From NCBI GenBank assembly GCA_038063635.1, contig JBBTUS010000006.1, positions 13,500-77,499 on the forward strand: a DNA stretch of 64,000 nt, read 5' to 3'. A model generated the notes under the pieces. It was given only the letters and a program-made list of their open reading frames with translations. It was not told where the DNA came from and did no database searches. The position numbers were made by a program, and so were the translations under genes. Below, piece after piece: positions 21,723 to 60,319 of this stretch. This DNA comes from Patescibacteria group bacterium (GTDB taxonomy: Bacteria > Patescibacteriota > Minisyncoccia > Phycocordibacterales > UBA9973). Position 1 is the stretch's first letter. Each line of letters opens with the position of its first letter.

Positions 21723-21765
21723 GAGCCGTGGGTTCCCTGTCCTAGGACTCCGAGGGCGAAGGCTC
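21723..21765. repeat. GC-rich hairpin element, family 1 (copy A), intergenic between scpA and scpB
   Basis: gagccgtgggttccctgtcctaggactccgagggcgaaggctc. The terminal inverted repeat is gagcc/ggctc. It is near-identical to copies at 36931 and 59283. Confidence 0.75.
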
Positions 21766-21793
21766 AGAAATCTTTTAATTTTCTTAATTTATT

Positions 21794-22546
21794 TTACATT
21801 GTCTCGGCTTCTTGTTTTTTAATTATAATATCCGCAAAATTATTTTCTTGCACAGCATGGAGTATTCCCTGCCTGACAAGTTCTAGCATAGCAAGAAATC
21901 CAACAATTACAACAACTCTTTCTTCTTTGGTTTCTGCTTTGCCGGAAAAATCTTTAAAATTAAATTTGAGAGAATTCTCAATTCTTTTTGTCAATCTATC
22001 TATCATTTCTTCTATGCTTATCACTTTTTTCACTTCTACTTTGGGTAAAAATACTTTTTGAGGAATTTTATCTAACGCCCCGCGAGCAAAAGTCATCATA
22101 TTTCTGGCAGTAATTTGTTCATCTGGCAAAAATGCCAAAATCTCATTTTTTCTTTCAAGCGGCGCAAAAATTATATTTTTGCCGAAATTTATTTTTATAT
22201 TATTTGCAAGCCTGGAATAAAGTTCAAAAATTTTCAGTCTATCTTCTAAATCTTTAATATCGCTTTCTTCTTCCAAAGTTAGATTTAAATTCGGCAATAA
22301 TGATTTTGATTTAATAAGTATAAGCGTAGCCGCTACAACTATAAAGCTTGCAATTTCAGCGGCTTGCCAGCCGGCAAGCCTGTTTTTATCCAACTGTAAA
22401 TTGTTCACATACTTTAAATAATCCTCTGTTACCCGAGCAAGAGATATTTCATTAATAAAAAGCTTTCGCTCTTCAATTAAATTTAAAAGAACCACAAACG
22501 GCCCTTCAAAATTCACGGTTTTTATTGTATAAGCTTGGTTTTCCAC
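21794..22546 (-). CDS. scpA: segregation and condensation protein A (kleisin)
   Basis: FEGPFVVLLNLIEERKLFINEISLARVTEDYL matches the ScpA N-terminus. Confidence 0.8.
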   Translation of the reverse strand: MENQAYTIKTVNFEGPFVVLLNLIEERKLFINEISLARVTEDYLKYVNNLQLDKNRLAGWQAAEIASFIVVAATLILIKSKSLLPNLNLTLEEESDIKDLEDRLKIFELYSRLANNIKINFGKNIIFAPLERKNEILAFLPDEQITARNMMTFARGALDKIPQKVFLPKVEVKKVISIEEMIDRLTKRIENSLKFNFKDFSGKAETKEERVVVIVGFLAMLELVRQGILHAVQENNFADIIIKKQEAETM

Positions 22547-22582
22547 TCTCTTATTTTAGCATATTAAAAAGATATATAAAAC

Positions 22583-24001
22583 TTATGATTTATAATCTTC
22601 AATCAGTTTATATAAGAGTCTAACCGGAGTACCAAGAGCGCCTTGAGCTAAAAATTCGTCAGTCATTGCCGTCATCCTTGGAGCTATGTCTATATGAGCC
22701 CATTTATAACCTTTAATAAATTGCTGCAGAAAAATTGCGCCATAAGTTGCGCCACCGTAGCGAGAATCTTTATTATGAACGTTTGACCAATCACCTAAGT
22801 TTCCTTTTATTTCATTCTCATATTCTTCCCACATGGGCAGTCGCCACATATAATCTCCCGTTTTATCTCCGATTTTTTCCAACTTAACGCATAATTCATC
22901 ATCGTCTGTAAAAATTGCCGACATGCGTTCGCCCAGCGCCACTACCGCCGCGCCTGTAAGAGTCGCAACATCAATCACAACTTCCGGATTATATTTTTTA
23001 GAATAAGTAAGCGCGTCAGCCAGAATAACTCTTCCCTCTGCGTCTGTATTTAATATTTCAATTGTCTGGCCGGACATTGAACGGATGACATCCCCGGGAC
23101 GATAACTTTTTCCGGATGGCATATTTTCAACCGAAGGAATTAATACAACTACATTTTTTTTTAATTTCATTTTTGCCACAAGAGCAATCACGTGTATGCA
23201 AGCCGCTCCGCCGGACATATCCATATTCATGCCGGAAAGCGAAGATGATGGTTTTAAATTTAATCCTCCGGTATCAAAAGTTACACCCTTGCCGACAAGA
23301 ACTATCGGTTTCTCGTTTTTTTTGCTCCGTCCCGACTTAGGTCGGGATAGACCCCAATATTCCATAATAATAAATTTTGATTCTTCGTCTGACCCGCGAC
23401 CGACAGAAAGCACCGCTTCCATGTTTAGTTTTTCCATTTCTTTTTCACCCAATACTTTAACTTTTACCGGTAAACCCCTTACAGCTTCTTTTGCTTTTTG
23501 CGCAAGTATTTGAGGTGTCATATCTCCGCCTGGAGTATTTGATAATGAGCGAGCTTTATTTACTTCTTGGGTTATAGCGTGACCTTTCAAAATTGCTTTT
23601 TTTATCTCTATTTTATTTGCGCCTGAAATTATCACTTCTTTAATAGAATTAAAACCTTCTCCAGTTAGTGTTTTATATTCTATAAATTCATAATTGGCAA
23701 AATCAAGTTGTGAACCGATTATTTCTCCGAGTTCTTCATCAGATATTTTTATATTCTTGAATTTTAAATCGTTAAAATCAAAACCTATCTTTTCTGCTTT
23801 CACTCCTTTTGCTAAAATAATCATTTTACGTACAAGTAAAAAAAGCTTTCTGGAATTCATTTTTTCTGCTTCATCACATTTTAGATAAAGAGTTTTTACT
23901 CCTTTTTCTTTAATAATTTCATCTTTATTTTTAGAACTAACAGATATAAAAAGCGTTTCTTTTTTTGCTTCTTTTAAACTGTTTTTGAAGGTTATTTTCA
24001 T
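22583..24001 (-). CDS. pepA: leucyl aminopeptidase (M17)
   Basis: VGKGVTFDTGG and NTDAEGRVILADAL are the M17 signature motifs. Confidence 0.9.
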   Translation of the reverse strand: MKITFKNSLKEAKKETLFISVSSKNKDEIIKEKGVKTLYLKCDEAEKMNSRKLFLLVRKMIILAKGVKAEKIGFDFNDLKFKNIKISDEELGEIIGSQLDFANYEFIEYKTLTGEGFNSIKEVIISGANKIEIKKAILKGHAITQEVNKARSLSNTPGGDMTPQILAQKAKEAVRGLPVKVKVLGEKEMEKLNMEAVLSVGRGSDEESKFIIMEYWGLSRPKSGRSKKNEKPIVLVGKGVTFDTGGLNLKPSSSLSGMNMDMSGGAACIHVIALVAKMKLKKNVVVLIPSVENMPSGKSYRPGDVIRSMSGQTIEILNTDAEGRVILADALTYSKKYNPEVVIDVATLTGAAVVALGERMSAIFTDDDELCVKLEKIGDKTGDYMWRLPMWEEYENEIKGNLGDWSNVHNKDSRYGGATYGAIFLQQFIKGYKWAHIDIAPRMTAMTDEFLAQGALGTPVRLLYKLIEDYKS

Positions 24002-24011
24002 GCCTAATTTA

Positions 24012-25424
24012 TTAGATTAATTTTATGCCCAATTCTTTCAATTGTTTATCGGAAATTTCCGAAGGAGAACCCATCATTAAATCTTTTCCTTCACCTGTTT
24101 TTGGGAAAGCGATAACTTCACGAATATTCGGTTCATTTTCAAGTATCATCATCAACCTATCAAAACCCCAAGCGATTCCTCCGTGTGGCGGAGTACCGGA
24201 ACGAAATGCTTCAAGCATATAAAATAAATTTTTTTCTGTTTCTTCTTTTTTAACTCCCATAATGTCATAAACAGCCAAGAGCGCTTCCGGTTCATGGTTT
24301 CTAATTGAACCGCCGCCAATTTCAAAACCATTTAAGGTTATATCATATTGATTCGTAAGAATATTCGGAATATTTCTTTTATTTAATAAATCGTCATGAA
24401 ATTTCGCCTGAGCCGCTGAAAATGGATTATGCGTAAAAGTCCATTCGCCTTCTGCTTGCGGATTATTGTCTTTGTTTGCTTTTTCAAAAAATGGAAAATC
24501 AATAACCCAGCAAAATGCCAAAAGATTTTTATTATTTTTATCTTTTCTTAAATCCGGCCTGTCGTTTCCATATTTTTCCATCGCTTCTTTATGCGAAATT
24601 TTTGGAAATGGAATTTCTTGTATTTCTTTTTCCGGATACAATTTTTGAACAATTTCTATCAATAAATTCTCGTTTAAATTCATCACTTCTTCCTTCTCTA
24701 CAAAACTCATCTCCATATCAAGCTGAGTAAATTCCGGCTGGCGATCTCCTCGCAAGTCTTCATCGCGCATACATTTTGCCATCTGAAAGTATTTTTCCAT
24801 GCCAGATGCCATTAAAAGTTGTTTATGTTGTTGAGGCGCTTGAGGTAATGCAAAAAATTTACCTTTATCAAGTCTGGAAGGAACAATAAAATCTCTAGCT
24901 CCTTCAGCTGTTGATTTTGAAAGTATTGGAGTTTCTATTTCAATGAAATTTTCCTTATCTAAATAATCACGAATAAATTTTACGACTTTATGCCTGTTGC
25001 GAATATTTTTCTGCATACGGCCTCTGCGCAAGTCAAGATATCTATATTTCATTCTGTGTTCTTCTCCTATTTCATATCCATCAGTTGATAAATCAATAGC
25101 TGAAGTTTCCGCTTTGTTAAGAATTTCAATATTTACAGCTTCAAGTTCAACATCGCCATTTAACACATCATCTTTTATATTTTTATCAGGACGCTTGTTT
25201 ACAATACCGGTAATTTTTAAAACCCATTCTGGACGAATCTCTTTCGCCATTTCTATGGCTTCAATGCGGCTTGGCAATGCTATGCATTGCGCCTTCCCTG
25301 TCATGTCGCGTATATCAAAAAAAACCATTTTGCCTTGATCGCGACGCACATCCACCCACCCCGCAATTACAATTTCTTTTCCAATATTATTTTTTAAATC
25401 TTTAATATAAATTCTATTTTTCAT
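24012..25424 (-). CDS. aspS: aspartyl-tRNA synthetase (bacterial-type catalytic core, lacks the GAD insertion domain)
   Basis: It has an N-terminal OB fold. LPQAPQQHKQLLM resembles the QSPQ motif. CMRDEDLRGDRQPEFTQLD, GGGSIRNH and GTPPHGG..GFDRL are class II AspRS motifs. Confidence 0.75.
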   Translation of the reverse strand: MKNRIYIKDLKNNIGKEIVIAGWVDVRRDQGKMVFFDIRDMTGKAQCIALPSRIEAIEMAKEIRPEWVLKITGIVNKRPDKNIKDDVLNGDVELEAVNIEILNKAETSAIDLSTDGYEIGEEHRMKYRYLDLRRGRMQKNIRNRHKVVKFIRDYLDKENFIEIETPILSKSTAEGARDFIVPSRLDKGKFFALPQAPQQHKQLLMASGMEKYFQMAKCMRDEDLRGDRQPEFTQLDMEMSFVEKEEVMNLNENLLIEIVQKLYPEKEIQEIPFPKISHKEAMEKYGNDRPDLRKDKNNKNLLAFCWVIDFPFFEKANKDNNPQAEGEWTFTHNPFSAAQAKFHDDLLNKRNIPNILTNQYDITLNGFEIGGGSIRNHEPEALLAVYDIMGVKKEETEKNLFYMLEAFRSGTPPHGGIAWGFDRLMMILENEPNIREVIAFPKTGEGKDLMMGSPSEISDKQLKELGIKLI

Positions 25425-25456
25425 GTTAAAAAGTATATCATAAAATAAGCAATAAA

Positions 25457-26464
25457 TTAAAAATAGTCAATCTTTACGGCTTTTCTTACCTCCTTTATCG
25501 TTTTATTTGCCACTATCCGCGCTTTTTCAGTTCCCTCTTTTAAAATTTCCATGACTGCTTCAGGATTTTTTGCAAGCTCTTCCCTTTTTGCGCGAATAGG
25601 CGCAATCATCTTTTCCAGAACTTCAATCAAGCGCTTTTTAATTACAACATCACCCAGCCCGCCTTTTCTGTATTGCTCTTTCAACTTTTTAATTTCTTCT
25701 TTGTCTTCATCAAAAATATCCAAATATATAAAAACAACATTACCCTCTGTTTGCCCCTTGTCATTCACGTGAATATGGTTCGGGTCAGTATACATGTCCA
25801 TAACTTTTTTAGAAATTTCTTCATAACTGTCAGAAAGGTAAATACAATTATTTAATGACTTGCTCATCTTTAAACCTCCGTCTATGCCAACCAGTCTTGG
25901 CGTATCACCTATTAAATGTTTAACTTTTTTAAAAGTTTCCCCATAAAAACGATTAAAGTCATCTACAATTTCATTGGTTTGTTCAATCATTGGCTTTTGG
26001 TCTTCGCCAACTGGAACTATGTTGCCATGACAAAATAAAATATCTGCGGCTTGCGAAACAGGATGCATTAAAAACCCGGCCGGCACATCTTCGCCATAAC
26101 CTTTATCTTTCATTTCATCTTTTACCGTGGGATTTCTTTTGAGTCGCGCTAGTGTTACTAAATTTAAAAAAAGTATTGTGAGTTCAGCAATCTCTGGAAT
26201 TTCGGATTGAATAAACATTACGGTTTTATTGGGGTCAAGTCCGCAAGCTAAATTATCTAACGCAACTTCTAAAACATTTTCTCTGACCTTGGCTGGATTA
26301 TCCGCATTGGAAGTCAAGGCCTGGATATCAGCCACCATATAAAAGCATTGATTGCCTTCATTTTGAAGTTTAACCCTGTTTTGTATAGACCCGACAAAAT
26401 GACCCAAATGGAGTTTTCCTGTCGGGCGATCACCGGTTAGCGCTATTTTTTCATCTTTTGCCAT
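25457..26464 (-). CDS. trpS: tryptophanyl-tRNA synthetase
   Basis: TGDRPTGKLHLGHFVGS is the HIGH-like region and KMSKS is present. The 335-aa size fits TrpS rather than TyrS. Confidence 0.8.
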   Translation of the reverse strand: MAKDEKIALTGDRPTGKLHLGHFVGSIQNRVKLQNEGNQCFYMVADIQALTSNADNPAKVRENVLEVALDNLACGLDPNKTVMFIQSEIPEIAELTILFLNLVTLARLKRNPTVKDEMKDKGYGEDVPAGFLMHPVSQAADILFCHGNIVPVGEDQKPMIEQTNEIVDDFNRFYGETFKKVKHLIGDTPRLVGIDGGLKMSKSLNNCIYLSDSYEEISKKVMDMYTDPNHIHVNDKGQTEGNVVFIYLDIFDEDKEEIKKLKEQYRKGGLGDVVIKKRLIEVLEKMIAPIRAKREELAKNPEAVMEILKEGTEKARIVANKTIKEVRKAVKIDYF

Positions 26465-34325: not shown

Positions 34326-35081
34326 AAACAAGGTTCAACCTTGTTAAAATCTTGTTAAAATTCTTTTCTGAAATTTAACCAGTCACTTATAAAATCCTTA
34401 AACTCTTTACGGTATTTAAAGTATTGTGGAAAATTTTCCATATCCAAAATAGATTTTTCTTTTCTATTAAAACCACAATGATCTAAAAAGCTTGAGAACT
34501 TATAATTAAACAAAAAAATTTTTACCCTTATTAAATTTTTAATTCCCTCTTCTTTCCAATTTTTCTCTATTAATTTTACTGGGTTTAATCCAATATAAGC
34601 GAACAAATACTTTAAATAATTATCCTTTTGAACATGACTGCCTTTAAATCTACCTTGAAAGAGGGTGCCATTTCTATTGTATTTCTTATTGAAATACATA
34701 GTATAAGCAGTCATTAATTTTTGCATAAACAAACTAATTCCACCTTCACTTTTTTCATTGATTAAAATATGAAAGTGATTAGGCATCAAACAATAAGCAC
34801 CAATTTCAACCAATGTTTCGTTTCTCTCTAAATTCAAAAGTTCTGACAAGGTCTGACCTTGTCTTAAATAGTCTCCTAAATCTACTTTCAAATTACTATT
34901 GCATAAATATAAAAGAATTAAAAATCTATAATAATCACTTGTTTCATTAAAAATAATTCTTTTATCGGTACCTCTGTTATAAATATGATAAAACTCGCCG
35001 ATAGAAAATTCTATATTTCTACTCATTAATATATTTTAGCAAAGAATACACAGAAGACAAGGTTCAACCTTGTCTTCTGTG
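34326..35081 (-). mobile_element. REP-associated tyrosine transposase (RAYT) / IS200-like unit: a HUH-Y1 transposase gene flanked by palindromes with the shared core acaaggttcaaccttgt
   Basis: The left hairpin is aacaaggttcaaccttgtt (34326-34344). The right is a perfect 33-bp palindrome cacagaagacaaggttcaaccttgtcttctgtg (35049-35081). Confidence 0.7.
34355..35026 (-). CDS. HUH Y1 transposase (IS200/IS605 TnpA-like / RAYT family)
   Basis: CLMPNHFHILI is the HuH motif. YIGLNPVKL matches the catalytic Tyr context YI..NPVK. Confidence 0.7.
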   Translation of the reverse strand: MSRNIEFSIGEFYHIYNRGTDKRIIFNETSDYYRFLILLYLCNSNLKVDLGDYLRQGQTLSELLNLERNETLVEIGAYCLMPNHFHILINEKSEGGISLFMQKLMTAYTMYFNKKYNRNGTLFQGRFKGSHVQKDNYLKYLFAYIGLNPVKLIEKNWKEEGIKNLIRVKIFLFNYKFSSFLDHCGFNRKEKSILDMENFPQYFKYRKEFKDFISDWLNFRKEF

Positions 35082-35103
35082 TTGTTTGTATTAAAAATGA
35101 AAC

Positions 35104-35778: not shown

Positions 35779-36873
35779 TTATATTCCTTCTTTTTTAAGC
35801 TGTTCTATAATCTCACGAGATTTGTGAGAAAGCTTGTTGGGAAGTTTAATATTTAATTTAATCAATAAATCTCCACGTTTTGTTTTTGAAACAGGCACAC
35901 CTTTGCCGCGCACGCGAAGTATTTCATTTATGGAAACACCTTCTGGAATGGTAACTTTTATTTCTCCATCTAAAGTTTGAATTGGATACTCCGTGCCAAG
36001 CAGCGCTTCAGAAAGTTTTAAATTTAGATTCATTACAAGGTCATTTCCATCTCTCTTAAATATTGAATGTGGCACAACATTTATTTTTATATAAAGATCC
36101 CCGATTGTTCCATTTTTTACAGCTTCTCCCATGCCACTCATGCGAATCATTTCTCCGTTACGAATTCCGGCAGGTATTGAAATTGATATTTCTTCTTCGC
36201 GACGCAATACTCCTGCGCCCTTGCAATGAGAACAAATTTCTTTTGGAATTTCTCCCACGCCTAAGCATTCATTGCAGAGTTTTGTACTTGAAATATTTCC
36301 AAAAATAGTTCTTTTTGCTTCGCGAATTTTTCCTTGTCCATTGCAAGTTTTGCAAGTTTGCGTTTTTGTACCTTCCTTGGCTCCGGAACCGCCACAAATA
36401 CTGCACTTAGATATTTTAGTAATTAAAACTTTTCTAGTAACGCCAAAGATGGAATCAGAAAAAGAAATTTGAATCTCCGTTGAAATATCGCGTCCACGAC
36501 GTGTTTCATATCTTTGTTCTCCGTTTCCTCCAGTAAAGAAATCGCTAAAAATGTCATTTAAATTTCCAAAATCAAATTCTGAACCAGAACCATTTTGAAA
36601 ACCGCTGAAATCAAAACCGCCGAATCCGCCTTGTTGGTATCTAGCGCCTCCGCCTTGATTTATATTTTTAAACCCAGCTCCAAATTGGTCATATTTTGAA
36701 CGCTTAGAGTCATCAGAAAGCACCTGATAAGCTTCATTTGTTTCTTTAAACTTAGCTTCGTTGCCACCTTTCTTGTCTGGATGATATTTGTGCGCTAACT
36801 TATAAAAAGCCTTTTTGATTTCATCTTTTGACGCATTTTTATTTACACCCAATGTATTATAATAATCTTTCAT
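35779..36873 (-). CDS. dnaJ: chaperone DnaJ
   Basis: The J domain is DYYNTLGV...HPDK. A G/F region follows, then four CxxCxGxG zinc-finger repeats and a C-terminal domain. Confidence 0.9.
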   Translation of the reverse strand: MKDYYNTLGVNKNASKDEIKKAFYKLAHKYHPDKKGGNEAKFKETNEAYQVLSDDSKRSKYDQFGAGFKNINQGGGARYQQGGFGGFDFSGFQNGSGSEFDFGNLNDIFSDFFTGGNGEQRYETRRGRDISTEIQISFSDSIFGVTRKVLITKISKCSICGGSGAKEGTKTQTCKTCNGQGKIREAKRTIFGNISSTKLCNECLGVGEIPKEICSHCKGAGVLRREEEISISIPAGIRNGEMIRMSGMGEAVKNGTIGDLYIKINVVPHSIFKRDGNDLVMNLNLKLSEALLGTEYPIQTLDGEIKVTIPEGVSINEILRVRGKGVPVSKTKRGDLLIKLNIKLPNKLSHKSREIIEQLKKEGI

Positions 36874-36930
36874 AATGTTTAAAGAAGCATTATATCATAT
36901 ATTATGTAAACATTTCAATAAAAATTTAAA

Positions 36931-36972
36931 GCGTCGTGGGTTCCTTGTCCTATATCTCCGAGGGCGAAGGCG
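36931..36972. repeat. GC-rich hairpin element, family 1 (copy B), between ATPase-1 and dnaJ
   Basis: gcgtcgtgggttccttgtcctatatctccgagggcgaaggcgc. The terminal arms gcgtc/ggcgc give a G-U wobble if transcribed. Confidence 0.75.
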
Positions 36973-36997
36973 CTAAAATTTCTATTGGAATGTTTAT

Positions 36998-38524
36998 TTA
37001 TATCATGGGTTCTGCTTCCTGTGAAGCTTTATTTGCCTTCAACGCTTCTTTTGAAACACCTGATTCAACCTCATCGGTTCTTTCTTCGTCTTCTTCGTAT
37101 TCCTCTTGCACTTTTCTCTTTGTTTTTCCTTCAATTATCGTCTTTTCTTCCGCGCTTCTTATAATTGTTGCTTCTTCTTCAGCGATAAGTCTAGCTGCAT
37201 CATGTTTTGATATAGAATATTTTCTGTGAGATGCAGAAATAATATCTTCTCGATAAGAAGGATGCGTAGGCGGTAGTACTCTCAAAGTTTCCGCGGAAAA
37301 TGGGTCATATGATTCTCCGTCAATCGTCATTTTTACATAAATTTCTCCAACCGCTAGATTGATTAAATCTTTTATGTCAAAAACTGGAGCAAATTCCGGT
37401 TTCATTTTAATCGCATCTTCTCCGCCAATTCTAAAAGCAATAATACTGCCACAGTTACCAAGCACTGCTTGATGTACTTTAGTAATAATCTGACCGACAT
37501 ACTGATGCGCTATAGTTAAATTTAGCGCATATTTTCTAGCTTCTGATAAAATATTTTCAAAAGTTTGCGTAACTACATTTTGAAACTCGTCTACATATAA
37601 GTAAAAATCCGTACGGTCTTTTTCCGGAATAGCCGCGCGCTCCATTCCTGCTTGTTTTATTTTAGTCAGGAATATTGAACCAAGAAAACTGGAATTTTCT
37701 TCCCCAAGGCGGCCCTTGGAAAGATTAATCAGAATTATTTTTTCTTCGTTCATTAATTTACTTATATCTATTTTATTTTGTTTCTGTCCAAAGATATTTC
37801 TAAGCAATGGGTCGGATAAAAATTGTCCGAGTTTATTTACAAGCGGAATAATAGCATCAGTATCAAATTTTTCAGACCAATCGGCGAATTCAATAGCGAA
37901 GAATCTTTTAACCATGTCGTCTGTAATATATTCAACAACTTTTTGCCTATAATTTCTGTCTGTCAGCATTGAAATCATCCCGCGCATGGTTGCATGCGGA
38001 TAATCAAGCAAGGCTAAACACGTAAAACGAAAAACGTGTTCAAGACGAGGTGTCCAATTGGCTCCGAATTGTTTTTGAAAAACCTCAATAAGACCTTGAG
38101 TAAGTTGAAACTTAAACATCGGGTCCACGTTCGCCAGTGGATTAAATGAAGCTGGATATTCAAGGTCTGTAGGGTCAATAATGCACACGTCTTCAACGCG
38201 TTCTTTTGGTATGTAGTCTAAAATAGCATCAATAACGTCTCCGTGCGGATCAATAAAACACAAGCCATGATTATATGTTATGTCTTGACGCATAAAAAGT
38301 TCAAGTAGTTTACTTTTTCCTACACCGGATTTTCCAATAACATAAAGATGTCTTCTGCGGTCAATACGCTTTATGCCGAAAATAAATTTCTTTTCTTCCA
38401 GAGCTGCCACATAATTCGTACGGCCAATAAAAGAAACCTCCTCTGGATTAACTTTTCCAAAAACAGGAAGTTCTGGCGGAGGAGGAGCATATTTAATTAT
38501 CTGCACTCGATTTGGCTTTGGCAT
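36998..38524 (-). CDS. soluble TraD/TrwB/VirD4-like P-loop ATPase (FtsK/HerA superfamily; paralog 1)
   Basis: GKSGVGKS is the Walker A, followed by IDPHGD. YLYVDEFQN is the Walker B and LTIAHQY is present. It has no N-terminal TM. It is a paralog of 42514..44763. Confidence 0.65.
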   Translation of the reverse strand: MPKPNRVQIIKYAPPPPELPVFGKVNPEEVSFIGRTNYVAALEEKKFIFGIKRIDRRRHLYVIGKSGVGKSKLLELFMRQDITYNHGLCFIDPHGDVIDAILDYIPKERVEDVCIIDPTDLEYPASFNPLANVDPMFKFQLTQGLIEVFQKQFGANWTPRLEHVFRFTCLALLDYPHATMRGMISMLTDRNYRQKVVEYITDDMVKRFFAIEFADWSEKFDTDAIIPLVNKLGQFLSDPLLRNIFGQKQNKIDISKLMNEEKIILINLSKGRLGEENSSFLGSIFLTKIKQAGMERAAIPEKDRTDFYLYVDEFQNVVTQTFENILSEARKYALNLTIAHQYVGQIITKVHQAVLGNCGSIIAFRIGGEDAIKMKPEFAPVFDIKDLINLAVGEIYVKMTIDGESYDPFSAETLRVLPPTHPSYREDIISASHRKYSISKHDAARLIAEEEATIIRSAEEKTIIEGKTKRKVQEEYEEDEERTDEVESGVSKEALKANKASQEAEPMI

Positions 38525-42513: not shown

Positions 42514-44763
42514 TTACTCTAGTATTTTTTTTAATACATCTTCCGGCACTTCACGAATTGTTCCCGAAGAAGAAATAGGGTTTTGTGTTTTTGGGTTTTC
42601 TTCTTTTTTGATAGGTATTTCTTCTTTCTTTTTTATCTCTTCCTTTACTTCTTTGGAAACTTCAGGCGATTCAGCTCCGTTAGATTTAGCTGAAATGAAA
42701 TTTTTTAATTTATCCATATCTTCCCTGCTTGCAGATCTATCTTTTGACGGAGAACTGGATGTTGGTTGCGTATTTTTTAATTCATTTAGAGAGATTGAAG
42801 GCGTTTCTTTTTCTATAGGTTTTTCTTCTTTATTTGTTTGAGAAGATGAAAAAACCTTATTTTCAGAAAGAGTTTTGTTTAAAATTTCTCTTAAAGCTAT
42901 ATTTTCTTTGGGTTTTTCCCCGCCTGCCTGCCCGACACGTTGACGCGAGTCATGCGGGCGGGCATTAGCTGTGCTAAAAGCATTGCGGTCAGGTTTTTGC
43001 GTTTGATTTACAAATTTATTTTTAATTGGTGCATATTGCTGTTTATCTCTTGGTTGTGGATTTGAAAATGAAGCTTTTTTATCAAAAACTCTTTTAATCG
43101 CCGAAAATATTCCCGGTCTTCTTATTGCTTCGTCCGGATGTTGGATATGTATATCAACTCTTTCTGGATATCTTTCTTCTCGGGCTCTTTCTATATTATT
43201 GGTATAAACTTCTTTTTTTTCAAATTCTATTCCTAAATCAGATAATGGCTTATAAAACTTTACTTCATCTTGTCTTACTTGGCTCATTGACCCTTTTATA
43301 GGCTTTAATTCTCCAGATTTCATTTTTGCTATGCAATCCCTGCAATACACTGGACGTCCTTTTTCTGGCTTAAAAGGCACAGTTGTTTCTTTTTTACAAA
43401 TAGAACATTCAGCGGGAAATTTTTCTACCTCACTAGCTTCATTTTCATTTCCAAGAGACATTCCACTCCAATTGTTTATTTCTCGTTCTACAACTTCTTT
43501 TGATCTGCAATATAAATCACGAGAAGATTTTATAACTTCTTCCTCTGTTTCTTTATTGCCTTTTGCCATTGGAGGTATTGTTCTAGCTGAAAAAGGTCTT
43601 GAAGTTACACCGTCTATCATTAATTTTAAATATATTTTATAGTTTGGAAGATTAACAATATCTTGAGGAGTAAATTCCGGGTCAAATTCTTTTTCTAAAA
43701 ATTCCGCATCATCGGCGCCGCAACGAAAAACTATCATCGTGCCAACGTTGCCAAAAACAGCATCACGAACTGCAGAACTTTTATCCGAAACAAGCTGGGC
43801 GGTATATTGATGAGCAACCGTCAGATTTAATCTGTATTTTCTGGCTTCAGATAAAATACCGGCAAAAGCGTCCGTCACAAAATTTTGAAATTCATCCACA
43901 TAAAGATAAAAATCTTTTCTTTCATCTTCTGGAATACGCACACGTTCCATCGCCGCAAGTTGAATTTTAGTAATAATCATACCACCCAAAAGCGAAGAAT
44001 TGTCTTCACCGATGCGCCCTTTGGAAACATTTACAAGAAAAATTTTTCCCTCATTCATTATGTCAAAAATGTTTATTGTGCTTTTTGACTGCCCTACAAC
44101 ATTTCGAATAATGGAAGTAGAAAGAAATTGACCTACTTTATTTTGGATAGGAGCAATAGCTTCATTTCTAAATTTGTCTTGCCAAGCCTCATATTCGTGA
44201 ATCCAAAAAGCTTTAATAACTGGGTCTTTTAGATTTGAAATTATTTTTTGGCGATAATCTTTGTCCACTAGCATTCTAGGTATGCCAAGAAGCGTAGTCC
44301 CAGGAGTATCTAGAAGAGCTAAAATAGCATTATTTAAAATGTATTCCATTCGAGCGCTCCAAGCATTGGCCCAAATTTTGGTAAATATTCCCATAAGACC
44401 TGAAGCGACCAAATGCTTGTATTTAGGGTCAATAAGTTCTAGAACATTAAAACCAACATGATATTCTGTGTCTGCCGGATTAAAATAAACAACATCTTTC
44501 ATGCGATTTGGAGGAATTGAAGAAAGAATTGCTTCAACATTTTCTCCGTGCGGGTCAACCATACATACACCATCGCCATTTTTGATGTTCTGAATAATCA
44601 TATTAAACATGAGCACAGATTTACCTGTTCCTGATTTTCCAAGAATATAAACATGCTGGCGCCTATCTTTGCGCTTTATGCCAAAAAGCTGATTTTTATC
44701 TCTATAAGTAGAATACCCAATATATGTAATATCTTTATTTAAAGGCAAATCTAAGGCGTTCAT
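42514..44763 (-). CDS. soluble TraD/TrwB/VirD4-like P-loop ATPase (paralog 2) with a 300-aa low-complexity C-terminal extension containing a CxxC...CxxC zinc ribbon
   Basis: GKSGTGKS, VDPHGE, YLYVDEFQN and LTVAHQY are present. The tail is Lys/Glu-rich and carries the family-2 repeat insertion. Confidence 0.65.
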   Translation of the reverse strand: MNALDLPLNKDITYIGYSTYRDKNQLFGIKRKDRRQHVYILGKSGTGKSVLMFNMIIQNIKNGDGVCMVDPHGENVEAILSSIPPNRMKDVVYFNPADTEYHVGFNVLELIDPKYKHLVASGLMGIFTKIWANAWSARMEYILNNAILALLDTPGTTLLGIPRMLVDKDYRQKIISNLKDPVIKAFWIHEYEAWQDKFRNEAIAPIQNKVGQFLSTSIIRNVVGQSKSTINIFDIMNEGKIFLVNVSKGRIGEDNSSLLGGMIITKIQLAAMERVRIPEDERKDFYLYVDEFQNFVTDAFAGILSEARKYRLNLTVAHQYTAQLVSDKSSAVRDAVFGNVGTMIVFRCGADDAEFLEKEFDPEFTPQDIVNLPNYKIYLKLMIDGVTSRPFSARTIPPMAKGNKETEEEVIKSSRDLYCRSKEVVEREINNWSGMSLGNENEASEVEKFPAECSICKKETTVPFKPEKGRPVYCRDCIAKMKSGELKPIKGSMSQVRQDEVKFYKPLSDLGIEFEKKEVYTNNIERAREERYPERVDIHIQHPDEAIRRPGIFSAIKRVFDKKASFSNPQPRDKQQYAPIKNKFVNQTQKPDRNAFSTANARPHDSRQRVGQAGGEKPKENIALREILNKTLSENKVFSSSQTNKEEKPIEKETPSISLNELKNTQPTSSSPSKDRSASREDMDKLKNFISAKSNGAESPEVSKEVKEEIKKKEEIPIKKEENPKTQNPISSSGTIREVPEDVLKKILE
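42913..42997. repeat. GC-rich palindromic element, family 2 (copy 1), in-frame inside the C-terminal tail of ATPase-2
   Basis: It is about 88% identical over about 85 nt to 50265-50349. The termini CCTGCCCG...CGGGCAGG form an inverted repeat. It encodes NAFSTANARPHDSRQRVGQAGGEK. Confidence 0.75.
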
Positions 44764-49731: not shown

Positions 49732-49880
49732 AAATATATATTATCATAAATCTAATAAAAATAATGTTTTTAAGGGGTTTGCCGAGTGACGACGAGGCAA
49801 TTTCAGGATTTTTTAAGCTTCAAAAAATCCGTACCGACAAAAACATTATTCTTGATTTTTATTTTTAAAAACACAACTAA

Positions 49881-50387
49881 CTAACGTTTGCTCCATTGTG
49901 GGGCTTTTCTTGCCTTTTTAAGTCCGAATTTTCTTCGCTCTTTAGCCCTTCCATCACGCTTTAAAAATCCTAATGTTTTTAATTTTGCGCGAAGTTCGCC
50001 ATCTGATTCCACTAAAGCTCTAGTAAGCCCATGGCGTACTGCTTCAGATTGAGAGTGAATTCCACCTCCAGAAACTCTTGCTTCAATGCTCCATTTTGAC
50101 CCAGGCTTACCCTTAGTAATCGGGTCTGTAATCAAGCGACGCTGTTCTTCTGTTTTAAAATAATCTTTTGCATCTTTTCCATTTACAACAAAACTTGTTT
50201 TAGCAGATTCATAAATACGAACTCTGGCCGTAGAAGTTTTTCTTCTGCCTATTGCTTCAATATATTTTTCCCCGCCTGCCTGCCCGACACGCTGACGCGA
50301 GTCATATGGGCGAGCATCAGCTATGCTGAAAGCATTGCGGGCAGGTTTTGTTGTTGTTTTGTTGTCATCTATCATAATATTATTCAT
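49881..50387 (-). CDS. rpsI: 30S ribosomal protein S9 with a 40-aa N-terminal extension
   Basis: The core from YIEAIGRRKTSTARV to the C-terminal KKARKAPQWSKR is canonical S9. The extension contains the family-2 repeat. Confidence 0.9.
   Translation of the reverse strand: MNNIMIDDNKTTTKPARNAFSIADARPYDSRQRVGQAGGEKYIEAIGRRKTSTARVRIYESAKTSFVVNGKDAKDYFKTEEQRRLITDPITKGKPGSKWSIEARVSGGGIHSQSEAVRHGLTRALVESDGELRAKLKTLGFLKRDGRAKERRKFGLKKARKAPQWSKR
50265..50349. repeat. GC-rich palindromic element, family 2 (copy 2), in-frame at the 5' end of rpsI
   Basis: It encodes NAFSIADARPYDSRQRVGQAGGEK, the same peptide frame as copy 1. No in-frame start codon exists between the element and the conserved S9 core. 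Confidence 0.75.
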
Positions 50388-56796: not shown

Positions 56797-56814
56797 GGAT
56801 ATTATTGTATTATA

Positions 56815-58479
56815 TCACAAAAGTACGGCTTTGATACGCCTGACACCTGCTGATATAGCTTCCTCTTTTTGAATTTTAAAATGCTTGGGTGCCTCTTTAT
56901 CGGTGCCAGCCAATTCGGAAATATTTTTCACATGTGGTCCCCCGCAAAATTCCCTGCTAAAGTATCCTGTATTTTTATCTCCTATAGAATAAACCTTTAC
57001 AATATCACCATACTTTTCATTGAAAGAATGCGTCGCAATTTTTTCTGCTTCTTCTTTTGGCATTTCTACAAAACCAACGGGCAATTTTTCGTTAATTTTA
57101 TCATTTACAATTTTCTCAACCATCTTTTTTTCTTCTTCAGTCATTTTTTGCGTATGAGTAAAATCAAAACGCAAGCGTTCAGCTGTAATATTGCTTCCCT
57201 TTTGCATAATATGATTGCCAAGAACTTGCCGAAGAGCGGCATTTAATAAATGCGTTGCCGTATGTAACTTTTTAGTTTCTTCACTACTATCTGATAAACC
57301 TCCTTTGAACATGCCGGCGGAAGATGTCTGTGATAGTTTTTGGTGTTCTGCCATTTTCTTTTTAAAATCTTCTAAATCTATTTCTATACCTTTTTGCTCC
57401 GCTAATTCAAGAGTTAATTCAATCGGGAAACCATAAGTCGTAAATAAAACAAATGGATCTGCGTTTTTTTCAAATTCTTTTAAACCATGTTCAAGTGTCT
57501 GACGAAATTTATTTTCTTCTTTTTGAATTTCTCCCTTGTCTTGAAGATTGTATATTTCTTGATATATTTTCTTATTTCTTTCAATTATTTCTTCTAATGA
57601 TTTTTTGGAAAATCTGACTGCTCGACGAATTAATCGTCTGGGAATATATCCTGCTCCAGTGTTTGAAGGAACTACGCCATCTGAAATAATAAAAAGAGAT
57701 GCTCTTGTATGGTCAGTTACAATTCTTTCTTCTCTTGTTTTTTCATTATTAAATAAATCCGTCTCATAAACACTTTCTTTTTCTTGCACTATAGAAACTA
57801 ATCTTTCTAATCCCATTCCAGTATCAATACCCAGTGTGTCTAATTTTTTAAGAGTTGCTTCGCCTTTATCCAATTTTTCACGAGAACCATCGCAAAAATA
57901 TTCGTTAAAAACAATATTCCAAATTTCCACATCTTCATTATTTACATTCTTGCAATAAATTTCTGTCGTTGGACCGCATGGGCCAGAATCTCCAGTCGGA
58001 CCCCAAAAAACATCTTCTCCTTCTTCTTTTATTTTTTCAATTCCGAGTTCTTTCCAAATTTTTTCTGATTCTTCGTCTTTTGGAACATTTTTACTTCTCT
58101 TGTAAATTGTAACATAAGAAATTTTCAATCCCATTTCTTTTGTAATAAATTCATAAGCATATTCTATCGCTTTTTTTCTTCCATATCCGCCAAAAGAAAA
58201 ATTACCTAACATTTCAAAGAATGTCAGGTGGGTAGAATCTCCAACTTCGTCTATGTCTCCGGTACGCACGCATTTTTGAACAGTAACTACATTCAAACCG
58301 CCAAAATCTTTTTCCGCTTCTTTGGGATTGGTATAATATTTTTTAAATTGTTGCATTCCAGCAGTTGTAAAAAGCACCGATTTATCATTTTCTGGAACAA
58401 GAGAAGAAGAAGGGATTATTTTATGCCCTCTTTCTTCAAAGAATTTTAAAAATCTTAATCTTACTTCGCTTGCTTGCAT
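56815..58479 (-). CDS. alaS: alanyl-tRNA synthetase (compact 554-aa form: catalytic domain plus editing domain, no C-Ala domain)
   Basis: The N-terminus is FLKFFEERGHKIIPSSSLVPENDKSVLFTTAGMQQFK...HLTFFEMLGNFSFGGY. The editing-domain motifs are HTATHLLNAALRQ and CGGPH. Confidence 0.85.
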   Translation of the reverse strand: MQASEVRLRFLKFFEERGHKIIPSSSLVPENDKSVLFTTAGMQQFKKYYTNPKEAEKDFGGLNVVTVQKCVRTGDIDEVGDSTHLTFFEMLGNFSFGGYGRKKAIEYAYEFITKEMGLKISYVTIYKRSKNVPKDEESEKIWKELGIEKIKEEGEDVFWGPTGDSGPCGPTTEIYCKNVNNEDVEIWNIVFNEYFCDGSREKLDKGEATLKKLDTLGIDTGMGLERLVSIVQEKESVYETDLFNNEKTREERIVTDHTRASLFIISDGVVPSNTGAGYIPRRLIRRAVRFSKKSLEEIIERNKKIYQEIYNLQDKGEIQKEENKFRQTLEHGLKEFEKNADPFVLFTTYGFPIELTLELAEQKGIEIDLEDFKKKMAEHQKLSQTSSAGMFKGGLSDSSEETKKLHTATHLLNAALRQVLGNHIMQKGSNITAERLRFDFTHTQKMTEEEKKMVEKIVNDKINEKLPVGFVEMPKEEAEKIATHSFNEKYGDIVKVYSIGDKNTGYFSREFCGGPHVKNISELAGTDKEAPKHFKIQKEEAISAGVRRIKAVLL

Positions 58480-58480
58480 A

Positions 58481-58963
58481 TCATATTTCTATTTTATCGG
58501 AATCATTAAGTTTATCGTTAGATATTTTCAGTAACGGTCTTTCAATTAAATTCATCACAACAAGGATTATCAAAACAAGAACAGTTGAAATAATAGCAAG
58601 ACTAAAAAGTCCGAATCCTGCCGCCATACCAATACCTGCCGTAACCCAAAGCCCGCCGGCTGTCGTAAGTCCTTTTAAGCGAGTACCTGAAAAAATTATA
58701 GAACCTGCTCCTAAAAATCCAATACCAACAATTATATTTGATGCCATTATTCCGGGATTATAACCGGCTTTTTCCGCGTATAGCACCGACAAATATTCAG
58801 AAATAATAATAAAAAGAGCTGAACCTAAAGAAACGAGAGAGTGAGTTTTCAAACCAGCCTCTTTGTGCACTAAAAAACGCTCAGCCCCAATAATCATACC
58901 CAAACCTATTGCTACCGCTAATCTTAAAATAATTTGACTATTTTGCGTAAAAAATTGTTCCAT
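58481..58963 (-). CDS. MgtC/SapB family membrane protein
   Basis: ILRLAVAIGLGMIIGAERFLVHKEAGLKTHSLVSLGSALF matches the MgtC N-terminal domain. Confidence 0.7.
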   Translation of the reverse strand: MEQFFTQNSQIILRLAVAIGLGMIIGAERFLVHKEAGLKTHSLVSLGSALFIIISEYLSVLYAEKAGYNPGIMASNIIVGIGFLGAGSIIFSGTRLKGLTTAGGLWVTAGIGMAAGFGLFSLAIISTVLVLIILVVMNLIERPLLKISNDKLNDSDKIEI

Positions 58964-59014
58964 ATCTGTATATTATATCAAAAAATGAGGAGTACAAGCA
59001 AATTTAGATATTAG

Positions 59015-60319
59015 TTATTTTATAACTCCCCCTCCTAAAACAACATTTTTATCATATATAACGCAAGACTGTCCTTTATCAACTAAAACAGGCTTATTAA
59101 AGCTGACTTTCGCGCTTTTTTTATTTATTATCTTAATTTTACATGGCAAAAATTCACCATGATAACGAATTTGCGCTTGGTAATTCTTGCCGTTTTTTGG
59201 AATTTCAGACCTGTTCCTGAATTGGCGGGCAGGAATCCAATTTGTATTCTTTATTTCTAAATGGAAACCTGAAAAATTTAAAGCGTCGCGGGTTCCCTGT
59301 TCTATGTCTCCGAGGACGAAGACGCTGGAATTTTTTAGATTTTCATTTTTAAAATTTTTATCTTGAGAAACTATTAAAATATTTTTCTTAATATTTTTAT
59401 CTATTATGTAATATGGGCCGTCATTCGGACTTTTTTGGGTAATCGTAAAACCATGCCGTTCTCCCAAGGTATAAAAAACCACTCCATTGTGATAACCTAT
59501 TTCTTCCCTTTTTTCATTAAGCGTTTTCCCTTTTTTTTCTTTTATATAATGTCTTAAAAATTCCTTTAAATCTACCGCGCCTAAAAAACATATTCCTTGA
59601 CTGTCTTTTTTTTCTGCAACCGGCAAATTGAATTTTTTTGCCAGTTTGCGAACTTCTGTTTTTTTGAGATGGCCTATTGGAAACAAAATTTTCTTCAATT
59701 GTTCTTGCTTTAATGTCCAAAGAAAATAACTTTGATCTTTGGATGGATCTAGTCCAACTTTTAGCTCATAGCTTTTAGCTTTTAGCTTGTGATTTCCTCT
59801 ATCAGCTATCAGCCATAAGCTATCAGCTATTCTGGCATAGTGTCCCGTTGCCACAAAATCAGCTCCCATTGAAATCGCTTCTTTAAAAAATGCGCCAAAT
59901 TTTACTTCCTTATTGCACATCACATCAGGGTTTGGCGTCCTGCCGGCTCTATATTCAGAAATCATATAATCTGCAACCTCTTTTTTATACACATCTTCAA
60001 AATCAAAAGTTAAAAATGGAATATCTAAAAAGGCGGCAACACGCATTGCGTCATGACGCTCTTCTTCTTCATTGCACTCTAAAAAATCCGGATGCCAAGT
60101 TTTAATAAAAACTCCAACAACTTCATATCCACTAAACCCCTTCGGGGTCGGGCGACCAAAAAATTTTAAAAAATTTTTTGGTGTAGCCTGTTTTAAAAGT
60201 GCTGCCGAAACAGCGCTATCTACTCCTCCCGAAAGTCCTACAAAAACTGTTTTTTTATTACTTTTCATAGAATTAAAATGTCTTTTAAAAAGCATTGCGC
60301 AGGCTGACGAGCCGAGCAT
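59015..60319 (-). CDS. mnmA: tRNA-specific 2-thiouridylase MnmA (carries an in-frame repeat insertion in the C-terminal region)
   Basis: The PP-loop is VFVGLSGGVDSAV, plus DPSKDQSYFL and catalytic cysteines. The family-1 element is translated as SVFVLGDIEQGTRDA. Confidence 0.85.
   Translation of the reverse strand: MLGSSACAMLFKRHFNSMKSNKKTVFVGLSGGVDSAVSAALLKQATPKNFLKFFGRPTPKGFSGYEVVGVFIKTWHPDFLECNEEEERHDAMRVAAFLDIPFLTFDFEDVYKKEVADYMISEYRAGRTPNPDVMCNKEVKFGAFFKEAISMGADFVATGHYARIADSLWLIADRGNHKLKAKSYELKVGLDPSKDQSYFLWTLKQEQLKKILFPIGHLKKTEVRKLAKKFNLPVAEKKDSQGICFLGAVDLKEFLRHYIKEKKGKTLNEKREEIGYHNGVVFYTLGERHGFTITQKSPNDGPYYIIDKNIKKNILIVSQDKNFKNENLKNSSVFVLGDIEQGTRDALNFSGFHLEIKNTNWIPARQFRNRSEIPKNGKNYQAQIRYHGEFLPCKIKIINKKSAKVSFNKPVLVDKGQSCVIYDKNVVLGGGVIK
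59283..59325. repeat. GC-rich hairpin element, family 1 (copy C), in-frame inside mnmA
   Basis: gcgtcgcgggttccctgttctatgtctccgaggacgaagacgc. The arms are gcgtc/gacgc, and the flanks aatttaaa..aat are shared with copy B. Confidence 0.75.

Follow-up and report, generated by a model that had tools for sequence, protein, structure and literature searches.

Three short GC-rich palindromes recur in the 64,000-nt window analysed here, two of them between genes and the third inside a coding sequence, and their presence at such different sites raises the question of what kind of element they represent and how it spreads and persists. On balance, we favour the view that the three sites belong to a selfish family of small, non-autonomous palindromic repeats of the Nomurabacteria/Paceibacteria (CPR), which would occupy hairpin tips and resemble Rickettsia palindromic elements (RPEs) in coding regions and repetitive extragenic palindromes (REPs) in spacers.

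Hairpin anatomy and extent of the family

All three copies were found where an earlier note on this sequence had placed them. A degenerate 32-nt core pattern, allowing up to three mismatches, matched the window at precisely these sites (none expected from 100 shuffles), and a covariance model run with filters off returned exactly the same three copies, with scores of 92-100 bits. Each 43-nt core sits inside an additional AT-rich inverted repeat of 21-25 nt that differs between copies, indicating that the real unit is a hairpin of 95-100 nt. The 43-nt element originally described therefore stands as the GC-rich core, but not as the full unit, which is about 100 nt. All three hairpins fold on the plus strand with z-scores of -3.5 to -5.

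The first hairpin (21696-21791, plus strand; 99.6 bits) has 24-nt arms (21696-21719 and 21768-21791) that are 92% complementary, and a core at 21723-21765 closed by gagcc/ggctc. It takes up the spacer between scpA (ScpA; 21794-22546, minus strand), upstream, and scpB (ScpB; 21109-21693, minus strand), downstream, leaving no more than 2 nt on either side, next to the scpA stop codon (21794-21796) and to the scpB start (21693). The second hairpin (36907-36996, plus strand) has 21-nt arms (36907-36927 and 36976-36996; 90% complementary) around a core at 36931-36973, the end of which had been set at 36972, and its closing helix, gcgtc/ggcgc, includes a T.G wobble. It begins 1 nt past the stop codon (36998-37000) of a gene for a TraG/VirD4/HerA-like AAA ATPase (36998-38524, minus strand) and lies upstream of dnaJ (DnaJ; 35779-36873, minus strand), its left arm overlapping the top promoter-like site ahead of that gene (minus strand, 36918 to 36889).

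The third hairpin (59254-59353, plus strand), with 25-nt arms (59254-59278 and 59329-59353; 80% complementary) and a core at 59283-59325, is closed by gcgtc/gacgc; the closing arms of the second and third copies had previously been listed in exchanged order. It lies within the mnmA ORF (59015-60319, minus strand; likely true start, the ATG at 60268), and translation of the ORF bears out the proposed in-frame reading on the minus strand, in which the core encodes SVFVLGDIEQGTRDA and the hairpin reads ...NENLKNSSVFVLGDIEQGTRDALNFSGFH... Pfam places the end of the PRC-barrel domain of MnmA at residue 319 and the start of the C-terminal barrel at residue 354, which assigns the copy to the linker between the barrel domains. 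The insert, first put at 15 residues, is really about 30 residues long and corresponds to the whole hairpin. The gene context given by the earlier note proved correct for all three copies.

Outside the window, about 90 further core copies were identified in 35 species-level Nomurabacteria/Paceibacteria assemblies, with 4-12 strict-pattern copies per MAG, and the covariance model yielded 97 matches in 92 CPR loci, most of them above 85 bits and few representing decayed copies. Some 20 other pattern matches, in high-GC genomes, were set aside as chance matches, and the core was absent from the viral contigs scanned. The only Rfam match in the window passing the gathering threshold was tRNA-Gln, and searches around the first copy at E<=10 returned just spurious microRNA-type hairpins. 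The earlier note had allowed that the genome might hold no further copies, or that arm pairing might be lost in them; copies are instead numerous and their pairing is kept. In an alignment of 90 copies, 91.7% of stem cells are paired, 20 of the 27 stem pairs covary and double-change cells number 448, versus 158 in shuffles, none of 500 reaching the observed value. This substantiates the claim that the copies form a genuine family whose stems change in a compensatory way, although most of the covariation falls in the outer arms, which that claim had not included.

The conserved unit spans about 65 nt (aaaGAATTTTAAGAGTCGT-GGGTTCCCTGTCCT-loop-GaCTCCGAGGGCGAAG-GCTCAGAAATTcTTt) and constitutes the tip of the hairpin, whereas each locus has its own outer 10-15 bp of stem, and arms differ from locus to locus even within one genome. 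Identity between copies is 0.88 in the core and 0.35, near random, in the outer arms. Two variants of the closing helix predominate, the GAG type (GAGTC; 48/90) and GCGTC (34/90).

Strand asymmetry and turnover at orthologous sites

The core strand folds more stably than its complement in 87 of 90 copies, and nearly all copies are antisense to the gene (21:1 among those in tandem spacers, 27:2 among those in ORFs); these ratios, like the conservation statistics, are inflated by the non-independence of orthologous copies. The folding asymmetry is also seen in the arms alone (62 vs 24), and the variable arms present a strand-specific excess of G.T over A.C mismatches (38 vs 11). This excess speaks for selection acting on one strand in its folded, single-stranded form and, since a purely junk element would not predict it, counts against a selfish reading. 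The genes flanking all three window copies lie on the minus strand, so that the wobble-containing fold belongs to the strand antisense to their mRNAs; the operon mRNA strand carries C-A mismatches where the antisense strand has G.U wobbles. Given this placement and the greater stability of the core strand, the wobble provides no evidence of selection on the operon transcript, as had been proposed.

These asymmetries make it possible, if distinctly less probable than not, that the repeat is a host-useful, REP-like structured element. Its antisense-strand hairpin, as single-stranded DNA or as RNA, would then be a binding or processing site kept at each locus by selection, with mobility explaining only its origin, and might block antisense transcription, protect or process operon transcripts, or bind a nucleoid or repair protein. 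The far stronger conservation of the core than of its surroundings, which extends to synonymous positions within ORFs, and the scarcity of decayed copies would fit such a role, as would an orientation bias that is maintained even though tips are able to invert and neither strand is closed to translation. The same spacers are, in addition, filled in distant genomes, whose flanking proteins are only about 57% identical, the scpA-scpB spacer, for instance, in at least seven; purifying selection on each copy fits this observation as well as repeated colonisation. Against this reading, a regulatory site would hardly be expected within the coding sequence of essential genes, the element matches no Rfam family, and there is no conserved promoter for an antisense RNA, the flanks being hypervariable. 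The tails that follow the closing helix (AGAAATTT and TTAAAATT) are not U-tracts of terminator quality, and a role as intrinsic terminator was rejected, the elements being absent from the 27 terminator-like sites called between positions 21000 and 38000.

A further argument against a host function is that no site is indispensable, with orthologous sites in close relatives being empty or holding a bare hairpin, an unrelated GC-rich core or the same core inverted. The AspRS encoded in the window lacks the insert of 24-29 residues; window positions 435-491 form a bare hairpin at a site where five genomes carry the element; and positions 49747-49864 contain a different core at the site where a relative (L050) carries that of the tip-repeat family. 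Two others (L029 and L071) share their arms but have the core inverted. The MnmA linker is a hotspot, with unrelated elements there in other genomes: among 120 homologues, it is occupied by the tip-repeat family in 36, by a second family in 20 and by other inserts in 47, and is without insert in 17, this occupancy showing no phylogenetic signal (Fitch score of 56 vs 60.3 in shuffles). Two loci that are 97.8% identical over 6.2 kb (L122 and L123) carry different families in this linker. Divergence between them is elevated across some 300 bp around the difference, which may thus have arisen when alleles were exchanged by homologous recombination and not through transposition.

No target-site duplication could be discerned, direct repeats at the borders not being in excess over controls, and no conserved ends were detected, the termini being the hypervariable and least conserved part of the element. 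No identical-armed copies were seen at different loci of one genome, and hence no recent transposition of a whole unit is documented. The 20 window ORFs scanned with Pfam revealed neither a mobilising gene nor a RAYT (Y1 HUH transposase). Both results, like the scarcity of decayed copies, count against the favoured reading. The one gene with two inverted copies on its flanks (L101) by inspection appears ftsX-like: its product would have about 305 residues with several hydrophobic stretches, and the gene follows one for an ABC ATPase.

Copies within coding sequences

About a third of the roughly 90 copies (27-29) lie within long ORFs, encoding MnmA, LeuRS, PheT, AspRS, LigA, UvrC, a CCA/polyA polymerase and a FAD oxidase, and at least 29 are clearly intergenic, in short spacers between co-directional genes. 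All copies within long ORFs preserve the reading frame and contain no stop codon, under an ORF criterion by which frame-breaking copies would have been counted as intergenic. The core measures 32 or 33 nt, and its length and the flanks co-adjust so that the frame is kept. One reading frame is used in 23 of the 25 in-ORF copies examined, giving the peptide (K/E)N(F/S)(G/P)AFALGD(I/K)GQGTHD(A/S)LN.

This shared frame, together with a peptide recognisable in 36 of the 120 MnmA homologues, is what a mobile protein module would produce, in which the encoded peptide itself matters as a functional loop added to enzymes. We regard this as very unlikely. At one LeuRS site the reading frame differs between genomes, L019 having one and L043 and L074 another, and the frame other than the usual one gives DFLSLRPRSRKGREPTTLEN; the nucleotides, and not the peptide, are thus what is conserved, which largely refutes the module. 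The intergenic copies and the conservation of synonymous positions also speak against it, and with the commonest closing helix, the GAG type, the frame normally used would run into a TGA stop, which is directly visible in the sequence. Close relatives, moreover, dispense with the insert or carry unrelated peptides.

Equally improbable is that the in-gene copies escape translation, being removed from the mRNA like a mini-intron or skipped by the ribosome. The comparison that would suggest it is with the GC clusters, double-hairpin and byp elements of mitochondria, GC-rich hairpin modules that have invaded AT-rich organellar genomes, coding regions included, much as these GC-rich hairpins lie in AT-rich coding sequence. 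The ribosome skips the byp elements of yeast mitochondria, so that the frame need not be kept in them, whereas the CPR elements are bacterial and keep it: the co-adjustment of core length and flanks would be needless under removal or bypass, and the in-ORF copies are all open, even if frame-breaking ones are classed as intergenic. Finally, chance similarity, or the remnant of a longer duplicated segment, for which nothing but the small copy number in the window speaks, is already refuted by the absence of expected chance matches, the unrelated flanks beyond the core and the many copies in other genomes.

Relation to known repeats and proposed mode of spread

In the searchable literature, elements of this kind were not found described for CPR bacteria. 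The closest likeness is to the RPEs, of about 150 bp, which form ten families, with 44 copies in R. conorii, nearly half of them fused in frame to ORFs (PMC10969869). Compared by published features rather than by sequence, both are short palindromic repeats of AT-rich, reduced bacterial genomes, present between genes and in frame in unrelated housekeeping genes, usually with one conserved peptide, and both comprise several families per genome. The elements described here differ in their hosts, which are CPR/Patescibacteria and not Rickettsia, and in conserving only the central ~65 nt, with ends that are hypervariable yet self-complementary. They consequently lack the whole-length alignability of RPEs (consensus of about 100-150 bp), outer arms being 35% identical as against 88% for the core. 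Different families swap at one hairpin, the tip is invertible, and a strong antisense orientation bias accompanies the strand-asymmetric fold.

REPs measure 30-40 nt, are confined to extragenic sites, occur mostly as pairs in BIMEs, are headed by GTAG (or CGTC), number in the hundreds per genome and go with a RAYT gene that REPs flank; in them a conserved stem irregularity leads to strand-specific recognition of the folded single strand (PMC3333891). The family shares with them GC-rich imperfect palindromes in spacers of co-transcribed genes, compensatory stem variation and a conserved stem irregularity. The REP assignment made in the earlier note accordingly fits the position of the intergenic copies but does not extend to strict membership: the conserved unit (about 65 nt) and the hairpin (95-100 nt) exceed the REP size of 20-40 nt, 29 of the ~90 copies lie inside long ORFs, and copies are solitary and few per MAG rather than paired and in hundreds. 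As to the GTAG or CGTC tetranucleotide at the stem foot, CGTC occurs solely in the minority GCGTC variant. MITEs (Correia, ERIC, BOX and RUP among others) are likewise small, non-coding, hairpin-forming, multi-copy and at times intragenic, but their terminal inverted repeats are conserved, being recognised by a transposase, and they are bordered by target-site duplications, where the present termini are hypervariable and direct repeats match controls. Group IIC introns target hairpins. The insertion sequences IS1397 and ISKpn1 are described as landing in REP loops (PMC1525189). Such elements resemble the CPR repeats in using a pre-existing DNA hairpin as landing site, but are autonomous, with their own enzyme, whereas the unit inserted here is a non-coding module of 45-65 nt.

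Under the favoured reading of a selfish family, spread and turnover would most likely proceed at the DNA level, with AT-rich hairpins receiving a copied GC-rich tip or exchanging tips among themselves. This might come about through template switching during replication or fold-back synthesis, through recombination, or through an enzyme specific for such structures, while cut-and-paste of the classical kind, relying on terminal repeats, is unlikely. The arms would afterwards be kept complementary by selection or by arm-to-arm correction. Copies would last where harm is small, in spacers between co-transcribed genes and in linkers or surface loops of housekeeping enzymes, where the entire hairpin would be translated through in frame, adding roughly 20-30 residues. 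In mRNAs, the elements would be tolerated almost only if the weaker-folding strand is transcribed.

A bolder and rather unlikely proposal is that the GC-rich modules are interchangeable tip cassettes of AT-rich hairpins and so a class of bacterial repeat that needs neither terminal repeats nor target duplications nor a transposase of its own to spread, relying on template switching or fold-back synthesis that creates complementary, locus-specific arms. They would be kept because some conserved process of the cell requires the antisense single strand, as DNA or RNA, to fold, and this would hold even where essential enzymes are encoded. If true, this would imply dual-use coding sequence throughout a CPR class.

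The genomes of CPR/Patescibacteria are tiny and thought to be stripped of excess DNA. Despite this, the lineage holds several families of palindromic modules, some within aminoacyl-tRNA synthetases, DNA ligase, UvrC and MnmA, and what they present is an RPE-like phenomenon, distinguished by a tip that is conserved on a stem that is different at every site. If the elements are selfish, they would represent a second, independent instance of the Rickettsia phenomenon and a ready source of in-frame protein length variation, and would also give rise to artefacts when CPR proteins are annotated or aligned. Should the strand-specific fold prove functional, they would instead mark a process in which template-strand hairpins are read. 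The combination of conserved tip, free stem and family replacement offers a tractable system for how bacterial chromosomes create, maintain and exchange palindromes.

Extent of the elements in the window

The three GC-rich 43-mers described in the earlier note were confirmed on the forward strand at 21723-21765 (copy 1), 36931-36973 (copy 2, previously ended at 36972) and 59283-59325 (copy 3). In the 64-kb window a degenerate pattern for the 32-nt core, allowing at most three mismatches, matches these three sites only (0 expected, from 100 dinucleotide shuffles), and a covariance model run with filters off returned exactly the same number of copies, at 92-100 bits. The window is about 32% G+C, and the GC-rich cores therefore stand out. 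Pfam searches upheld the proposed neighbours, ScpA and ScpB for copy 1 and a TraG/HerA-like ATPase and DnaJ for copy 2, and, together with ORF reading, the placement of copy 3 inside MnmA, where it is read in frame. All the genes neighbouring the three copies lie on the minus strand. The window MnmA is identical to a protein from a metagenome-assembled genome listed at NCBI as 'Patescibacteria group bacterium'.

The cores are real, but the proposed 43-nt extent falls short of the complete element. Each core is enclosed by an outer, AT-rich inverted repeat whose arms measure 21-25 nt, located at 21696-21719/21768-21791 for copy 1 (92%), 36907-36927/36976-36996 for copy 2 (90%) and 59254-59278/59329-59353 for copy 3 (80%), so that the whole unit is a 95-100-nt hairpin. 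The arm sequences are wholly different among the three copies, and the forward-strand fold energies range from -32 to -35 kcal/mol (z-scores -3.5 to -5.0). The copy 1 hairpin occupies the scpA-scpB spacer up to 2 nt from the stop and start codons, and that of copy 3 spans approximately residues 323-355 of the 434-aa MnmA ORF, in the interval separating the Pfam PRC-barrel domain (ending at 319) from the C-terminal barrel (starting at 354). The best sigma-70-like promoter match in the 17 kb scanned (minus strand, 36889-36918; TTGAAA-18-TATAAT with TG, 11/12) lies upstream of dnaJ, with its -35 box within the left arm of copy 2.

The window also contains other hairpins and repeats. A GC-rich repeat of about 85 nt (CCCCGCCTGCCTGCCCGACACG..GCATTGCGG(G/T)CAGG) is present at 42903-42994, within the ORF for a TrwB/VirD4-like ATPase (749 aa), in its C-terminal part, and at 50258-50347, in a 46-aa N-terminal extension of ribosomal protein S9 or a leader upstream of it. 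Hairpins devoid of a GC core were observed between minus-strand genes at 35039-35090 (perfect 16-bp stem, 3-nt loop) and between convergent genes at 12667-12728, where the long hairpin looks like a bidirectional terminator. Two occurrences of the near-palindrome CTAATCTCTAATTCGCGCGAATAGGCGAATAG(A) lie some 1.5 kb from each other (3961-3994 and 5448-5479), and a GC-rich spacer at 14117-14188, upstream of the minus-strand gene 14167-15450, carries TTAGAGGCGAGGCAGG twice, 38 nt apart. An island of about 1 kb (1749-2712) reaches some 60% G+C in this 32% G+C genome and is possibly of horizontal origin; its ORF encodes a matrixin-type metalloprotease domain (Peptidase_M10, E = 1e-7).

Distribution, fold and strand asymmetry of family 1

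A scan of 185,579 species-representative genomes with the pattern GGGTTCCN{8,16}CTCCGAGGNCGAAG returned 110 loci. About 20 of them are from high-GC genomes and match by chance, the intervening stretch being unrelated. The earlier note had envisaged that no further copies might exist; about 90 were found beyond the window, in 35 assemblies mostly labelled as Candidatus Nomurabacteria, Paceibacterota or Patescibacteria, with a few low-GC bins labelled otherwise. Family 1 does not exceed 12 copies per metagenome-assembled genome, in a sample of one genome per species that represents recent events thinly. The covariance model yielded 97 matches in 92 CPR loci, most of them above 85 bits and a handful at 40-80. 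One Paceibacterota genome presents three same-strand matches within 1.4 kb (locus L001, 542-643, 963-1071 and 1805-1906), the middle one strongly diverged (40 bits). No viral contig with family 1 was found, the five pattern matches all being unrelated high-GC chance hits, and no Rfam family matched the whole window at gathering threshold or the copy 1 region at E<=10.

Beyond the part enforced by the pattern, the conserved unit comprises about 65 nt, aaaGAATTTTAAGAGTCGT GGGTTCCCTGTCCT (3-6 nt) GaCTCCGAGGGCGAAG GCTCAGAAATTcTTt, outside which copies are unrelated in sequence and self-complementarity is kept. Mean pairwise identity is 0.35 in the outer arms, 0.76 in the inner AT part and 0.88 in the core and closing helix, where the search pattern, by fixing 20 core positions, accounts for part of the conservation and leaves decayed copies under-represented, a bias that the covariance-model search offsets only within the fetched loci. 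RNAalifold analysis of a 90-sequence alignment outlined an 18-bp outer stem, a 4-bp closing helix and a short inner helix. Arm pairing, whose loss in additional copies had been considered a possibility, is kept in them, with 91.7% of all cells paired across the 90 sequences, and covariation is supported by 448 cells changed on both sides versus 158 in shuffles (0/500). Sliding the partners by one to three columns causes pairing to collapse. Within the core, two partners are available to the 3' AGGGC, GUUCCCU and GUCCU, and both pairings are compatible with the few variants.

The two strands of the element are not equivalent. The core strand presents a conserved U.G in the closing helix (79/90) and in the inner helix (87/90), positions at which the opposite strand has C-A mismatches. 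It is the more stable strand in 87 of the 90 copies (mean -38.2 vs -30.9 kcal/mol with RNAfold), and for the arms alone in 62 vs 24. Relative to the genes, the core strand lies in antisense at 21 of 22 tandem-gene spacers and in 27 of 29 ORF-internal copies, counts in which orthologous copies are not independent and which hence inflate orientation p-values. Stop codons alone do not explain this bias, since open frames exist on both strands, and replication direction was read from skew only, a measure confounded by gene strand. Two explanations would account for the bias: purging of copies that place the strongly folding strand in mRNA, or a strand-specific process.

The variable part of the arms comprises 1103 Watson-Crick pairs, 38 G.T-type mismatches, 11 A.C-type mismatches and 28 others, and, relative to transversion-type mismatches, the G.T class is enriched and the A.C class is not. 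This enrichment fits selection on core-strand pairing better than the mere weakening of mRNA hairpins. Mainly on these grounds, a host-useful, REP-like function of the family-1 elements retains a real, if minor, share of our confidence, and we regard it as unlikely overall.

Copies inside genes and turnover at orthologous sites

Family 1 resides in long ORFs encoding PheT, LeuRS (two sites), the CCA-adding/polyA polymerase, LigA, AspRS and MnmA, and two copies each are found in ORFs for an FAD-linked oxidase and for UvrC (both in one genome in the latter case). A single reading frame, (K/E)N(F/S)(G/P)AFALGD(I/K)GQGTHD(A/S)LN, is used by 23 of the 25 in-ORF copies examined; if translated, the inserts are predicted to contain stretches such as ...AFALGDIGQGTHD... 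This strict frame conservation makes bypass or splicing of in-gene copies unlikely, with the proviso that frame-breaking copies would count as intergenic under the ORF criterion used. A peptide-level role of the inserts is contradicted by one LeuRS site, at which locus L019 has the usual frame and loci L043 and L074 a different one (DFLSLRPRSRKGREPTTLEN); this indicates that the nucleotide sequence is conserved, not the peptide. The GAG and GCG types of the closing helix cluster by site, since a TGA arises in the usual frame with the GAG type; given this trivial cause, the clustering is uninformative on inheritance, and within-genome concerted evolution of these variants was discarded.

The MnmA insert, for which comparison among orthologs had been proposed, is shared only in part. 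Among the 120 closest homologues, 36 carry family 1 in the linker, 20 a second family (..STDIFLLKNSSCSRQSRSQVSF..), 47 other inserts and 17 none. Linker state lacks phylogenetic signal (56 Fitch changes vs 60.3 in shuffles; nearest neighbour in the same state in 38/120), which rules out vertical inheritance as the sole explanation. Two loci, L122 and L123, are 97.8% identical over 6.2 kb, yet differ in bearing family 1 versus family 2 in the linker, with compensated differences in the outermost arm bases. A tract of about 300 bp with higher divergence starts at the MnmA hairpin and extends downstream (about 3360-3660 of each locus), suggesting allele exchange by recombination and fitting the import of a foreign allele via homologous recombination. 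Read in reverse complement, the conserved left flank QDKN(L) gives the right-arm peptide NF(Y/C)L that both families have in common, so that the downstream arm is a mirror of sequence the gene itself carries upstream. In locus L113, the MnmA gene (P0002) presents a second family-1 copy (3427-3526, 77.9 bits), located some 490 nt upstream of the one in the linker and likewise antisense to the gene. In the N-terminal domain of the window mnmA, a perfect 12-bp AT palindrome with a small ACCCCTTCGGGGT hairpin (60141-60198) encodes an 18-aa insert, ATPKNFLKFFGRPTPKGF, present in only 15 of 120 close homologues; a different 8-9-aa insert (..SLPAGRQ) occupies the same point in 2/120, and this is a second insertion hotspot in mnmA.

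Spacers also exchange their contents. Between the RNase T-like gene and mnmA, a window hairpin (60267-60374) with a 25-bp AT-rich stem (92%) and an unrelated 58-nt GC core reaches exactly from the stop codon of the former to the likely start codon of the latter, its forward strand folding better (-52.6 vs -42.9 kcal/mol). In the closest relative, the syntenic locus L111 (79% amino-acid identity over the region of synteny), this stem closes on a short loop alone. At this site L114 presents a family-2 core, a third core family. The window spacer 441-493 (site A) holds a bare 14-bp hairpin without a GC core (435-491), and five other genomes have family 1 there. The grpE-rpsI spacer (49732-49880) has a different core in the window and family 1 in its ortholog, L050; the long AT-stem hairpin involved (49747-49864; ..GGATTTTTTGAAGCTTAAAAAATCC..GCCTCGTCGTCACTCGGC..) folds better on the sense strand, and its core family also occurs upstream of mnmA in L115, in opposite orientation. 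At a spacer between divergent genes the arms are homologous in L029 and L071, and the core is inverted between the two. The scpA-scpB spacer contains family 1 in at least 7 genomes, with flanking proteins roughly 57-72% identical and arms that have drifted and are still paired.

The AspRS of L109 and L080 carries an insert of 24-29 residues that includes both arms and is absent from the window AspRS (24012-25424). The absence of the whole hairpin from this orthologue defeats the notion that the arms always derive from a pre-existing target hairpin, which holds for the RNase T-mnmA spacer and site A. No direct repeats of the target-duplication type were detected at hairpin borders over controls in 90 copies; the AspRS insert of L080 has an apparent direct repeat of 10-12 nt, which did not prove general.

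Relationship to known elements and putative mode of spread

The behaviour of family 1 within genes resembles that reported for the Rickettsia palindromic elements (PMC10969869). Its siting in operon spacers is REP-like (PMC3333891), as the earlier note had proposed, but tests for REP membership failed, as did those for MITE, terminator and Rfam family membership. Family 1 differs from both Rickettsia palindromic and REP elements in that its centre is conserved while its ends are free, and in that different families occupy the same hairpin. A terminator scan did not support terminator identity, and a search for tRNA or tmRNA fragments returned only an unrelated tRNA-Gln (1558-1630). Visual inspection of both strands of family 1 showed none of the cores typical of self-cleaving ribozymes, such as the hammerhead motif CUGANGA/GAAA; in the core of another family CUGACGA does occur, with neither stem II nor GAAA. 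No description of palindromic or in-frame elements in CPR, Parcubacteria or Nomurabacteria was found in the searchable literature.

A conserved centre with free ends, and a hairpin common to different families, argue against a transposase reading terminal repeats, and no mobilising gene was identified among the 20 window ORFs scanned. We infer that spread would occur by a DNA-level process acting at hairpins, which might involve template switching or fold-back synthesis, arm recombination or a structure-specific enzyme. In the simplest account, family 1 is one of several families of palindromic repeats in this lineage that are selfish and non-autonomous, each built as an AT-rich hairpin tipped with a GC-rich module. 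On this account the modules, dispersed over many unrelated loci and genomes, are gained, lost, flipped and replaced, and survive only at harmless places, namely short spacers and permissive protein linkers, the latter requiring that the frame be kept.
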